Of a stretch of DNA of 64,000 bases, positions 5,941 to 19,214 are shown in pieces. The first letter of the stretch is position 1, and every line of letters starts with the position of its first letter. Origin of the DNA: a virus; IMG/VR virus record IMGVR_UViG_3300028029_000006, positions 216,236-280,235 of that record. One strand, written 5' to 3'. Under the pieces are notes generated by a model that saw only the letters and a list, made by a program, of their open reading frames with translations, ran no database searches and was not told the origin of the DNA. The position numbers were made by a program, and so were the translations under genes.

Positions 5941-6098
5941 GTCTCCTTATGGTGGGAGTTGACGCAACCAAGTTGCGAAATAATATTTAAAGACATGGGC
6001 ATTAGCTGGAGAATATGTTAATGTTCATGAAAATGTTGGTTCATTTTTTATTATAGTAGTAACTGTTGACTTCGGAGGTTCAATTCCTCTGGGAGGCT
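5941..6098 (+). ncRNA. tRNA-like RNA with no D-stem and a large insert in place of the anticodon arm
   Basis: GTCTCCT/GGGAGGC acceptor, TATGGTGG linker, GAGTTGAC/GTTGACTT helix enclosing two hairpins, T-arm GGAGG-TTCAATT-CCTCT. Confidence 0.65.
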
Positions 6099-6127
6099 CA
6101 AGAAAGAAGGTAATTATTAAAAGTGTA

Positions 6128-6511
6128 ATGGAAATAAACTGTTTTGGCAATAAATATTGGAAATTACCAAACGGAGATTTACATAGAGGTAATGACTTAC
6201 CAGCTGTTGAACGTAAAAGTGGAGATAAAGAGTGGTATGTAAATGGGAAACATCATAGAGAGAATAACAAACCAGCTATTGAATATAAAAATGGAGAAAA
6301 GTTTTGGTATGTAAATGGGAAGCCTCATAGAACTGATGGTGCAGCATTTGAAAATGCAAGTGGTCATAAATTATGGTATCTTGAAGGTATTCGTTATTCT
6401 GAAGAAGAGTACAACGAGAAAGTAAAAGGGTATAAATCTGAAGGAACTGAAGAAAACAATTCATATTCTCAAGGGCATATTGATGGTCATTCAGGATTGA
6501 TGTGGTTATGA
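6128..6511 (+). CDS. Beta-hairpin repeat protein (LHR..PA..NG.K.WY.NG family)
   Basis: Three repeats; 5' end identical in sequence to 24278. Confidence 0.85.
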   Translation: MEINCFGNKYWKLPNGDLHRGNDLPAVERKSGDKEWYVNGKHHRENNKPAIEYKNGEKFWYVNGKPHRTDGAAFENASGHKLWYLEGIRYSEEEYNEKVKGYKSEGTEENNSYSQGHIDGHSGLMWL

Positions 6512-6840
6512 TTATGAAGAGTATACTGGTAATAGACGGTTGGGGTGATAAGCGTTGGAAATTACCTAATGGTAAACTTCACAGAGAGGGCGATTTACCG
6601 GCTTATATTAGTTTAAACGGGTATAAATCTTGGTATATTAATGGTAAGTTACATCGAGAGAATGATAAGCCAGCTATTAAACAAATAAATGGAACTAAAA
6701 TTTGGTATCTAAATGGTAACCTTCATAGAATTGAAGGTGCAGCTGTTGAGTTAGTTGATGGTCGTAAATATTGGTATCTTGAAGGTTTTAAATATTCTGA
6801 AGAAGAGTATAACGAAAAGTTAAGCGGTTATTGCAATTAA
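6502..6840 (+). CDS. Beta-hairpin repeat protein
   Basis: LHREGDLPA, LHRENDKPA and LHRIEGAA repeats. Confidence 0.85.
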   Translation: MVMIMKSILVIDGWGDKRWKLPNGKLHREGDLPAYISLNGYKSWYINGKLHRENDKPAIKQINGTKIWYLNGNLHRIEGAAVELVDGRKYWYLEGFKYSEEEYNEKLSGYCN

Positions 6841-6841
6841 A

Positions 6842-6883
6842 GGGACGTAATGTTCTTACGGGGTTCGAATCCCGTCCTGACTA
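6842..6883 (+). pseudogene. 3' half of a tRNA-Leu-like gene
   Basis: V-arm GGGAC-GTAAT-GTTCT, T-arm ACGGG-GTTCGAAT-CCCGT, then CCTGACT-A-CAA. Parallels the 3' half of the 2652 tRNA; no 5' half. Confidence 0.65.
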
Positions 6884-6926
6884 CAAGCTTAAACGAATAA
6901 GCTGAATATTTAAAAGGAAAAGAGTT

Positions 6927-7472
6927 ATGTTAAAAATTGATTTGGACAAAAAAGAAGCTGCTGCTGTTATTGAGTTGTTATCAAGAAACAACAAGTTCAA
7001 AACCCCATCAAGTAAAATTATGATGAGGTTTGGAATGTCTCGACCATTGATTGATGGTAGTGGAGTTGTTTTTTATGATAGAACTGTGGAGGGAGATCGT
7101 TGGACCATTAATTATGTTTATGGTTCTTCTGGTTATAGCAATAAAAAATCTAACTTAGATGTTTATTGGATTTCGATTGACCTATCAAAACCAATATGTG
7201 ATCAGCTTGATTGGGTTAACTGGTTAGAGTTAGATTGTTTGGATCAATCTGATTTTTATGCATGTACACGTCCTGCTTGTATTGATATGGAAAGATGTAT
7301 AAAAGTAATCGAAAGAATTTTCGAAAAACAGAAATTATGTCAAGATTACAACAACGGTTTAACGGATAAAGCTCCTCCTCCCAACAAAATCTCTTTTGAA
7401 AGTCACCCAACTTTATCAATTAATGAAAGTTGGGAACTGAACGAATTTGGTGTAAGGAAAGAATTAAGCTAA
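6927..7472 (+). CDS. Hypothetical protein, paralog of 1997..2431
   Basis: Shared motifs; AAAGGA RBS. Confidence 0.8.
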   Translation: MLKIDLDKKEAAAVIELLSRNNKFKTPSSKIMMRFGMSRPLIDGSGVVFYDRTVEGDRWTINYVYGSSGYSNKKSNLDVYWISIDLSKPICDQLDWVNWLELDCLDQSDFYACTRPACIDMERCIKVIERIFEKQKLCQDYNNGLTDKAPPPNKISFESHPTLSINESWELNEFGVRKELS

Positions 7473-16560: not shown

Positions 16561-17368
16561 AGAAAAACAGAATTATGAAAAGAAAAAATGTAAAGAAACA
16601 GAACAATATCACTTGGCAATCCGACATTGCCTCTTTGGATAAAGGTCACAAGATTAATTGTGAGAATCCTTTCAATAAGAAAATTAAAAAGTAAATGAAT
16701 AACTTCGATAAGTTAAACGAAGGGCAAAAGGCATACATTAAAACTATGCTAAGTTCTGAGAGTAATGATGCAGCAAAAGAGATTCTAAATGCATTTAGAT
16801 AAGAAAAATGCAGATTGGCATGTTAATTATAGACTAACACTTGGGGCTGTTACTAACACGGTTAAGTATCCTAATTTGGAAAAAGCTGTTAGTAGTATGG
16901 TGTTAATCAGACTTGCAGATGAAATCATTTATGATGTAGAAATTATTAAAACAGTAAACGGAAATCCAACCGTTGTTTATTCTGATGACGATTTAGATGA
17001 AGATTTGGAATTGTTTTACTCTTCAATTGAAGATAAAATTAAAGAAGATGAGCAATATGAGTAAGAATGATAAATGTAATAATTGTGGCTGTGATGATGC
17101 GTATGAATCATACCAAGGGGACATGTTTTGCGAAACATGTTTTGAATCTCAACAATCTTATAGGAAAAGTTCCCGAGGAATGATTGAATTGGAACATGAT
17201 ATGTCAGATTCTTATTATGATTATCCTGGTGATGATTGTGAGTATGACAATCCACAATTCCACATGTAGGAATTATGATTGAAGATTATCATTATGCAAC
17301 GATGTTTCTATCAATGGGATTGAGTTGTTTTATTATTGAACTAGTTAAGTTTCTTTAGAAAGATTAAA

Positions 17369-17710
17369 ATGACATTTGTAAAGGGTGAAGGACAGTTAAG
17401 GCATCAGTTTTTTGGACGATACTCTGCAAGAATCGCAATCGGATTCTCCGATATGAAATCAGCACTTAGTGCTATTGATTTTCTTGTTGGTAAGTGGGAA
17501 GCTATTGAGAATAATGGAAGAGTTGGGATTGTGTTTGAAGGTTCTGATCCTGAACTTAAGAAAGTATTAGATCAACTGGAAGAGTTTGGGGCCCCAAAGG
17601 AAAAAGTTTCTAGCCTCAAATATAGTGTTGATTATGGTGAAATTTTTGAGGTAACTATTCCTGTTACTGCTAAAGAACAAGAGAAATTATGGGGCAGAAT
17701 TCTGAAATAA
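17369..17710 (+). CDS. Hypothetical protein
   Basis: AGAAAG RBS; 113 aa. Confidence 0.75.
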   Translation: MTFVKGEGQLRHQFFGRYSARIAIGFSDMKSALSAIDFLVGKWEAIENNGRVGIVFEGSDPELKKVLDQLEEFGAPKEKVSSLKYSVDYGEIFEVTIPVTAKEQEKLWGRILK

Positions 17711-17953
17711 AAGCTGATGATATTCGTTATATGAAATCTTTTTATAAAAAATCTTGGAAAGAAGCGGAAAAAGTTTATATTTTTTGTGTGATTGGAAGCT
17801 GTATAATTTACAGTCTTTCAATCTATTTAGGTGCTAACTATATATACATTATGGTTGGCCAAGCAACCACCATTATAACATTAACTTATCTTTTTAGAAA
17901 AGAAACGAATCGTATAGTGAAATCTGAAATTAAATTCTTGGCGGAAGTAAAAA

Positions 17954-18577
17954 ATGGCACATTTAGATTCTAAAGAAGTTGATATCACTAAGCAAGATAT
18001 TGTAGATGCATTGAGACAACCAGCTAACTTTGCTTATTCTGGTCACAATGAAGACATGTTTCATACTTGGTCATTGGGACCAATTATTTTGAATCATGAT
18101 TCATGCCTTGTTGATGAATCTAATTATGATATGCTTGAGAAACATCTTGAATCTGATGAAAGTTTATCAGAAGAGTGGGCAATTACTAGGTGTTCATTTT
18201 GGGGTGATGGTTGGGTTGATCATATTAGTTTTCGAGCTATCGAAGATTTTAAAAATGATGATGACCCAAAGGTTCCAACGAGAATTTTCCGAGTGTTAAC
18301 AGAATGGTTTGATACATTAAAAGAATCTTTTATTCTCAATGAGATTGATTATAGTAACAAGATTTTTGAAGCTACAATTGAAAATATTGGTAACGTTGGT
18401 CTTTGTATGACCAAAGATGAGATTCCAGATGATTGGATTAGCAAATGTTATTCTTGGTTTGAATCTAATTGTCCTAATGAGATTGAGGACACAGATGGTT
18501 TCGGTGGTTATCCAAGCGATGATAAAATGAAAGAGTGTTTGGGTGAGTTGGGTTTTCTAGAAGAGGAAGGTTATTAA
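17954..18577 (+). CDS. Hypothetical acidic protein
   Basis: 207-aa ORF. Confidence 0.85.
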   Translation: MAHLDSKEVDITKQDIVDALRQPANFAYSGHNEDMFHTWSLGPIILNHDSCLVDESNYDMLEKHLESDESLSEEWAITRCSFWGDGWVDHISFRAIEDFKNDDDPKVPTRIFRVLTEWFDTLKESFILNEIDYSNKIFEATIENIGNVGLCMTKDEIPDDWISKCYSWFESNCPNEIEDTDGFGGYPSDDKMKECLGELGFLEEEGY

Positions 18578-18859
18578 ATGTATACTTATATTATTGGTTT
18601 TATTGTTAATTTAATTCTTATGGCAGTAATTATTAGATGGTTACCTATTGGTAAGTTAGCAAGGCTTGTAATTAAAACAGCTGAAAATGATGCAGCTAAA
18701 GCTCATTTTACTATTATGATAATTGGAGGGCCAATTACTGTATTTGCTATATTTTTTTACACATTTTTCAATCTAATTGCTTTTCCAAAGGAGAAAACAA
18801 TCCCTGAAGTAGAAGAGAAGAAGAGCGAATATAGAGACTGTGCTAAAAAAGAAAGTTAG
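18578..18859 (+). CDS. Putative membrane protein
   Basis: Two hydrophobic segments; the stop codon is within hammerhead stem II. Confidence 0.75.
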   Translation: MYTYIIGFIVNLILMAVIIRWLPIGKLARLVIKTAENDAAKAHFTIMIIGGPITVFAIFFYTFFNLIAFPKEKTIPEVEEKKSEYRDCAKKES

Positions 18860-18919
18860 GACGAAACATGCTTTGATTAGCATGTATAATGGTATGAAGC
18901 CTTTACTGATGAGTCCCAA
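18856..18919 (+). ncRNA. Type II hammerhead ribozyme
   Basis: TTAGGAC-GAAA-CATGCT/AGCATG-TA, stem I TAATGGT/GCCTTTA, CTGATGA-GTCCCAA. Complete core; predicted cut after 18886. Confidence 0.88.
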
Positions 18920-19102
18920 ATCACGCACGTATGCACAACAACTTAGTTAAGATAATCTGATTAAGTTGGGTTGCGGTTTATGTAATTATCTTGGGAGATA
19001 TTTATGTGAGCGAGGTAGAGGTGAAAAAACTGTTAACAACAATGATGATAGATTGTTAATTGGCCACAAGATCATCTGGCATTCATGCATGAGTGTCATT
19101 AT

Positions 19103-19214
19103 GCCTGACTGGTTTGTGGAGTTGTATTGATTTCCGGGTTTTGTTATATTCATAGATGCACTTGCTTTGATTTTCAATACGATTTTATCGAAGGTTCAAA
19201 TCCTTTGACAGGCT
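19103..19214 (+). ncRNA. tRNA-like RNA with no D-stem and an extended central arm (same family as 5941)
   Basis: GCCTGAC/GACAGGC acceptor (1 mismatch), linker ending GTGG, AGTTGTATTGA/TCAATACGATT helix, T-arm GAAGG-TTCAAAT-CCTTT. Confidence 0.55.

Follow-up and report, generated by a model that had tools for sequence, protein, structure and literature searches.

Two tRNA-shaped RNAs lacking a D stem, with unrelated central inserts, in the genome of an uncultured jumbo phage

The window analysed here is a 64,000-nucleotide (nt) stretch of the viral record IMGVR_UViG_3300028029_000006 (C1; C1:216236-280235), a jumbo phage genome of 409,147 bases with 32% GC, 96% completeness, the standard code and 21 tRNAs called by ARAGORN. 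The window consists of short open reading frames (ORFs) in one co-directional run, with eight tRNAs interspersed, and also holds two tRNA-shaped elements without a D stem, here termed copy 1 and copy 2, which form the subject of this report. The relatives of the phage terminase are all uncultured, and the closest long relatives show terminase identity of only ~50%. The relatives of a 624-aa vWA protein of the phage derive almost exclusively from Myxococcota genomes and bins, and the host is therefore probably a myxobacterium (Myxococcota). A CCA-adding-family enzyme is encoded in the genome, while no RtcB or SmpB gene was found in it.

Anatomy of the two elements

The two elements and their parts, in window coordinates, are as follows:

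5941-6098 (+): copy 1, a D-stem-less tRNA-shaped RNA of 158 nt; acceptor strands 5941-5947 and 6091-6097, U73 at 6098, trailer CAA
5948-5954 (+): unpaired linker of copy 1, 7 nt, containing UGGU
5955-6073 (+): central arm of copy 1; 9-base-pair (bp) closing helix 5955-5963/6065-6073, including 7 bp shared with copy 2, and a 101-nt insert
5994-6029 (+): 13-bp hairpin within the insert of copy 1
6067-6090 (+): helix exit and T arm of copy 1
19103-19214 (+): copy 2, a D-stem-less tRNA-shaped RNA of 112 nt; acceptor strands 19103-19109 and 19207-19213
19118-19186 (+): central arm of copy 2; helix 19118-19130/19174-19186 of 13-15 bp, including the shared 7 bp
19190-19206 (+): T arm of copy 2, whose U73 lies at 19214, followed by the trailer CUA

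The coordinates and motifs of both elements agree with those given in a first-pass annotation of this DNA. GCCU/AGGC acceptor ends and a U73 discriminator are present in both copies, as is a T arm with a fully paired T stem (5/5, with G49.U65) and a T loop reading UUCAAUU in copy 1 and UUCAAAU in copy 2. A 7-bp acceptor had been described for both elements; it is complete in copy 1 (7/7, with two U.G pairs), whereas 6/7 positions pair in copy 2, which carries an A6 x A67 mismatch. An acceptor stem and T arm of tRNA type are thus found in both, in copy 2 with that one mismatch. The D stem of canonical tRNAs (10-13/22-25, with A14 and G18G19) is found in neither, in line with its reported absence: in copy 2 the D stem would be without any Watson-Crick pair, and an alternative 4-bp D-type stem in copy 1 would have a non-canonical 13-nt loop at a cost of 3.8 kcal/mol. 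Furthermore, neither insert contains a stem of 5 bp capped by a 7-nt loop with U33.

The linker of copy 2 is 8 nt long and, like that of copy 1, contains UGGU, which may mimic a D loop. It is followed by the central helix common to both elements, in which GGAGUUG pairs with UGACUUC in copy 1 and CGAUUUU in copy 2 (7 bp; consensus YGAYUUY), with pair probabilities of 0.92-1.0 when the tRNA frame is imposed on the fold. The annotation had proposed this helix, and had placed the GG of GTGG in the unpaired linker; with the frame imposed, this GG is predicted to pair inside the GGAGUUG helix, and the register with GUGG unpaired constitutes an alternative to the predicted helix starting at GG. When the fold is unconstrained, the T arm of copy 1 is only 13% populated owing to a competing register. 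The central arm folds better than its shuffled versions in copy 1 (z -2.9), while that of copy 2 (z -1.7; 33/500) does not do so significantly. The insert of copy 2 forms a weakly folded 43-nt loop beginning UU-UCC-G and, as had been noted, has no sequence in common with the insert of copy 1. A CRISPR-DR3-like repeat split by 18 nt can be observed in the latter (5985-6029, +; E 6.6), and is probably due to chance.

Both copies have an A-2/U-1 leader, G+1 and a 12-bp top half. Their trailers start with C74, as do those of 16/18 canonical phage tRNAs that parsed properly, against a C frequency of 12% on this strand. [quoted passage not shown] The earlier proposal that the elements are tRNA mimics serving as RNase P and CCA substrates thus finds sequence support in the leader, G+1, top half and C74, and in the gene for a CCA enzyme. 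Logan contigs from run SRR8439058 are 100% identical over both copies, by which assembly error is excluded; they probably represent the same sample, and hence no variation is seen. The copies are real and probably functional.

Common origin, sources and relatives

The top halves of the two copies are identical at 24/33 positions. Random pairs of phage tRNAs attain this level in 2.3% of cases, and pairs of the same isotype in 19%. Sharing of a 7-mer so close to the start of the linker is seen in ~1% of genome or shuffle controls and in 8.7% of canonical tRNA pairs. The joint chance is ~2e-4 per pair, if the two are independent, and stays <1% once the 6-9 odd tRNA-like genes of this genome are taken into account. 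MAFFT misaligned the two copies. Pairing had been said to be retained despite wide sequence divergence, and this applies to 18 of the 19 shared pairs: two show double-sided changes, five show one-sided compatible changes and 11 are unchanged, while the remaining pair is broken. As such, the two copies are likely of common origin. Part of the family resemblance is nevertheless generic, since the GCCU/AGGC-U73 acceptor is the common phage tRNA-Thr type, sometimes found in tRNA-Gly or tRNA-Arg.

Over its helix exit and T arm, copy 1 agrees at 21/24 positions with the corresponding stretch (variable-arm exit plus T arm) of Myxococcota tRNA-Tyr, a match that came from a pattern derived from the copies themselves. 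Among 1,974 unselected tRNA segments (Tyr ~3%), a Tyr segment shares the top score for each copy (20/24). The Tyr-like exit and T arm therefore suggest that the central helix represents an enlarged class II variable arm rather than an anticodon arm, in a geometry like that of the tRNA-like domain of transfer-messenger RNA (tmRNA). The central arms had been described as swappable; with two copies only, no homologue found and no instance of arm exchange, this description is not supported.

Two smaller elements with a related frame are located upstream of copy 1:

433-490 (+): mini m1; 6-bp acceptor, AAUGGUU linker, one hairpin, T arm, U73, CAA
2511-2562 (+): mini m2; frame as in m1 (6-bp acceptor, AAUGGUU, U73, CAA), with a different central hairpin

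Four D-stem-less elements thus occur within 19 kb, having UGGU and U73 in common, centres of 14 to ~120 nt and no shared insert. A D-stem-less descriptor matched three times in the genome (copy 2, m1 and m2), compared with 0-1 matches (mean 0.2) in 10 shuffled genomes; copy 1 stands outside this count, having been removed by a filter for a chance 3-bp hairpin. The T arms of the minis are nearly equal to that of an amber (CUA) tRNA (34428-34499, +), present though the genome uses TAG as a stop. TAG recoding was ruled out, since long ORFs of the phage have it as their stop.

Further unusual tRNA-like genes can be observed in this genome. Another element without a D stem, at 40302-40381 (+), combines the acceptor sequence GGGGUUG with A73 and a T stem that contains a bulge, and gives a weak tmRNA match (E 0.005). 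Two adjoining CCA-ending tRNA-like genes at 58786-58968 (+) were missed by both ARAGORN and Rfam; one is allo-tRNA-like, its acceptor having 8 bp and its T stem 4 bp, and the other has a 12-nt loop at the anticodon position. Just before the window, C1:214379-215624 (L038:18144-19389) harbors a 207-nt tRNA-framed RNA with a long insert and an anticodon-less mini-tRNA of ~50 nt with an encoded CCA.

Searches for relatives of the two copies covered viral, metagenomic, phage and bacterial sequences. The exact 3′-end pattern gave no matches in viral contigs or metagenomes. Relaxed 3′-end patterns gave no true homologue in viral contigs, the matches listed being almost all canonical Thr, Gly and Arg tRNAs, and a further metagenome scan with the 3′-end pattern returned at least 107 canonical tRNAs, with no homologue among the matches listed. 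No homologue was found by blastn of the copies against 50,697 phage records, and DNA comparison with 28 jumbo-phage records gave short chance matches only. The helix-plus-T-arm pattern gave coding noise and no homologue in 62 records and was not matched in 151 Myxococcota-phylum genomes, while a further run there gave nine matches, all to tRNA-Tyr. A regular expression run over 5.5 Mb of loci matched copies 1 and 2 only. No comparable RNA is present upstream of 34 RNA ligase relatives, where relatives of the 207-aa protein encoded upstream occur, the surrounding context is unrelated, and the proteins flanking the elements are singletons. Neither copy was recognised by Rfam cmscan (tRNA RF00005, tmRNA, Y RNA) or called by default ARAGORN, and Rfam and homologue searches with the inserts gave no match for either. 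The absence of homologues is not established by these results, since two of the scans covered listed matches only and the closest relatives of the phage are distant, at ~50% terminase identity.

Several other RNAs came to light in the surveyed phage and metagenome loci. A Thr-type acceptor with U73 and a long non-canonical centre was observed at L185:1118-1271, L258:1021-1124, L327:6535-6640, L293:80-241 and L463:1455-1668, in RNAs unrelated to copies 1 and 2. These Thr-acceptor RNAs do not contain the helix common to the two copies, and a D-like hairpin forms in some of them. Phage tRNA genes with anticodon-loop inserts are found in L186, L174 and L213, and the insert pairing in L186 (tRNA-Thr) resembles an archaeal bulge-helix-bulge intron. 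In related jumbo phages (L095:2617, L104:11869, L075:19033 and L119:8454), tRNA-shaped RNAs are numerous; they have D arms, and their anticodon regions are enlarged. The metagenome contig L352 carries short genes alternating in strand with a regular spacing of ~70 nt, like a cassette or inversion array.

Genomic context and possible roles

Each copy is preceded by a non-coding block, and the surroundings of copy 2 include a ribozyme core and a gene fragment:

5717-5940 (+): block upstream of copy 1, 224 nt, no long ORF, with a 3′ hairpin or pseudoknot
18859-18916 (+): complete type II hammerhead ribozyme core, predicted to cut after 18886
18887-19102 (+): block upstream of copy 2, 216 nt, non-coding and hairpin-rich, its last hairpin directly preceding the RNase P cut predicted for copy 2
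19244-19477 (+): N-terminal fragment of an RNA ligase, 77 aa, 29 nt after copy 2

The 216-nt block is bounded by the hammerhead on its 5′ side and copy 2 on its 3′ side, and both copies end 29 nt before an ATG. The hammerhead core is the one strong descriptor match in the genome, with none in 10 shuffles and a second, loose match at C1:48916; it was not reported by Rfam cmscan. The genome has no match to the RNA ligase family other than this fragment. A short direct repeat marks the end of its ORF at 77 aa; beyond it lies a non-coding segment of ~190 nt that is rich in GC and folds strongly (region 19244-19690, +), and Logan contig L134 shows the same. The block before copy 1 contains, at 5758-5893 (+), the micro-ORFs MNNSRGPPGI (5758) and MNNSRGPPS (5864), the sole such pair in the genome or in the other loci scanned; their RGPP motif resembles those of known ribosome-arrest peptides. 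A promoter scan remained at chance level, with no dedicated promoter for the copies.

We tentatively suggest, with somewhat less than even confidence, that the two copies are non-decoding tRNA top halves retained as processing marks in a long co-directional transcript. Host RNase P would cut before G1 and thereby set the 3′ end of the structured block of ~220 nt upstream, the hammerhead would set the 5′ end of the block before copy 2, and 3′ trimming with CCA addition would set free the mRNA that follows and leave behind a tRNA-shaped RNA that is stable. Within this RNA the UGGU linker would dock on the T loop, the central helix would occupy the class II variable-arm position, as in the tmRNA tRNA-like domain, and the insert would chiefly close the junction and be free to vary. 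Processing signals were among the options raised in the first-pass annotation, and this option fits the context best. In its favor, the leader, top half and trailer match those of the working tRNA genes of the phage, both copies terminate 216-224-nt non-coding blocks 29 nt before an ATG, with a hammerhead before copy 2, an anticodon-type loop is absent, the four D-stem-less elements have variable centres, the genome includes the CCA-adding-family gene, and the helix exit and T arm are Tyr-like. Several points weigh against it, however. The same cuts would be expected from ordinary tRNAs in the transcript, and the 29-nt spacing to an ATG is also found after one canonical tRNA (28614). The well-folded 101-nt insert of copy 1 (z -2.9) exceeds the needs of a cutting mark. 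The weak acceptors, with two U.G pairs in one copy and an A.A mismatch in the other, and the adjoining broken ligase gene fit decay, and no homologues emerged from the viral, metagenome, phage and Myxococcota searches.

The acceptor type also bears on a second possible role, in which the copies act in trans as decoys for enzymes that recognise the acceptor end or elbow (toxSAS such as FaRel2 and CapRel, GNAT or nucleotidyltransferase toxins), sparing the real tRNAs. FaRel2 picks Gly and Thr acceptors and is active on minihelices, both copies have a Thr/Gly-type acceptor with U73, and the phage has many non-canonical tRNA-like genes. However, copy 2 carries three of the four FaRel2 determinants (not G4-C69), copy 1 only one to two (G1-C72, plus a U2.G71 wobble), and the lack of a dedicated promoter also counts against such a role, which we regard as rather unlikely. 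Decoys for anticodon nucleases, as proposed earlier, are disfavoured because neither insert displays an anticodon stem-loop, the element that PrrC reads (PMC3014915). The earlier notion of cargo, whereby the tRNA frame would stabilise distinct functional inserts that bind host or phage proteins, agrees with the folding of the copy 1 insert beyond its shuffles, with the closing helix common to both copies, in which two wobble pairs are kept, and with the Thr-frame RNAs with long inserts in other phages (L185/L300, L258, L327 and L293). The copy 2 insert is barely structured, however, searches for homologues and in Rfam gave no match for either insert, cargo is missing from the minis and no instance of arm exchange is seen, so that we consider such carriers distinctly unlikely. 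A chimeric chassis, combining a Thr/Gly acceptor, a Tyr-type exit and T arm and a tmRNA-like stemless D loop, might also serve as a modular device that, with a hammerhead or other signal, excises RNAs of ~220 nt and releases an aminoacylatable mimic whose exchangeable arms neutralise host defence enzymes acting on tRNA ends; this we view as quite improbable.

Loss of selection offers a different explanation, by which the copies would be decayed Gly-, Thr- or Tyr-derived tRNA genes with insertions and deletions. The absence of homologues from all collections searched, the imperfect acceptors and the adjoining truncated ligase are compatible with this, as is the occurrence in copy 2 of UU-UCC-G at the anticodon position together with U73, G1-C72 and C2-G71. 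The T loops are nevertheless intact, two compensatory changes, long closing helices and C74 are retained, the D-stem-less design is repeated in four elements and a shared new helix is not expected from random decay, which makes decay unlikely. In its intron mode ARAGORN calls copy 2 as tRNA-Gly(UCC) with a 36-nt intron at the canonical position (37/38), a call reproduced in 11/300 shuffles. Lak phage tRNAs carry enigmatic introns (PMC6784885), and anticodon-loop inserts exist in the phage tRNA-Thr genes described above. The spliced copy 2 would, however, be without a Watson-Crick D stem and have a variable region of 11 nt, the bulge-helix-bulge core, read from the sequence, pairs at only 2/4 positions, and the inserts are too short for group I introns. 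Copy 1 is not called, and the genome has a truncated ligase and no RtcB. An intron-containing tRNA is therefore extremely improbable.

Relatives of two other known RNA classes, Y-RNA-like partners of a Ro60-like protein or a deviant tmRNA, are likewise very improbable. The genome does encode a Ro60-like TROVE-vWA protein (C1:371048-372922), missed by Pfam TROVE, whose structural model matches Ro60/TROVE best (E 8.6e-9; top 11 Foldseek matches all Ro60/TROVE). Its gene, however, is >130 kb from the copies and has RNAs of its own with an ACAAGC/ACACGC module, which is absent from copies 1 and 2, as is the GNCGAAN0-1G motif. The junction layout of the copies is as in the tmRNA domain (PMC3968760), and an alternative 6-bp acceptor partner 299 nt upstream would allow copy 1 to be closed by a 5′ strand near 5775 (~325 nt). 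G3.U70 and A73 are lacking, however, no tmRNA is called by Rfam or ARAGORN and there is no SmpB gene. The Ro60-like locus (C1:365-373 kb; L039:10100-17922, -) further contains ThiF/E1, Ubl-like and JAB genes, and the tRNA-like RNA cluster at this gene is conserved in relatives. The protein family has ~2,000 members, beside which the RNA module recurs in Myxococcota contigs, and this locus appears more tractable than the two copies.

Comparison with known RNAs and implications

Canonical phage tRNA-Thr and tRNA-Gly share the acceptor and U73 with the copies, and bacterial tRNA-Tyr shares the variable-arm exit and T arm; unlike canonical tRNAs, the copies have no D stem, no anticodon arm and no RF00005 match. 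In mascRNA, menRNA and mitochondrial tRNA punctuation, a tRNA-like top half guides RNase P and sets the 3′ end of the upstream RNA. These systems are eukaryotic and not homologous to the copies, for which a similar role is suggested by their layout. The copies share with the tmRNA tRNA-like domain an acceptor and T arm, a D loop that has no stem and includes GG, and a helix at the variable-arm position (PMC3968760). They differ from it in having C3-G70 and U73 in place of G3.U70 and A73, a shorter linker of 7-8 nt, a total length of 112-158 nt and neither an internal tag frame nor a pseudoknot ring; the match to tmRNA RF00023 is limited to 11 nt of the T loop (E 1.6), and ARAGORN finds no tmRNA. 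YrlA, YrlB and the phage Yrl Y RNAs are likewise non-decoding tRNA mimics, with a Ro60-like protein also encoded by this phage, and YrlA of M. smegmatis is a substrate of RNase P and of CCA addition (PMC4201824, PMC12135203). In contrast to YrlA, the copies are not permuted (no T arm before a D arm with a capped acceptor), have no D arm and no Ro-binding motif and do not adjoin the Ro60 gene. On the features tested, the copies fall outside the tRNA, tmRNA and YrlA classes.

The nearest described RNA is species 1 RNA of phage T4 (RNA C, rnaC; NC_000866 70908-71046), which at 139 nt is similar in size to the copies. It resembles them in its canonical 3′ T arm, imperfect acceptor closure (5/7), U73, lack of an encoded CCA and lack of a D stem and anticodon arm, and it is also missed by Rfam. 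It differs in having two side-by-side central hairpins instead of one closing helix and in lying in a tRNA cluster, while the copies lie singly among ORFs; it has been seen experimentally, whereas the copies are known from sequence alone. A blastn comparison with 50,697 phage records and the T4 locus gave no sequence likeness to rnaC beyond the T loop, and the resemblance is as such one of design, not of sequence. The function of T4 RNA C is unknown (PMC3014915, PMC9697503). The main text of a 2023 survey of viral structured RNAs presents tRNA-like candidates and no D-arm- or anticodon-less class (PMC10690425), and no description of the present layout was found in the literature searched, the original T4/T5 stable-RNA papers lying outside that search.

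T4 RNAs C and D are stable tRNA-like phage RNAs whose role has been unknown for decades. The pair described here does not by itself yet open the RNA C question, since it comes from an uncultured phage and the searches gave no homologue. The hammerhead-to-RNase P layout would make a punctuation role inexpensive to examine in vitro, and the presence in one genome of four D-stem-less versions with very different central sizes points to the top half as the functional portion.

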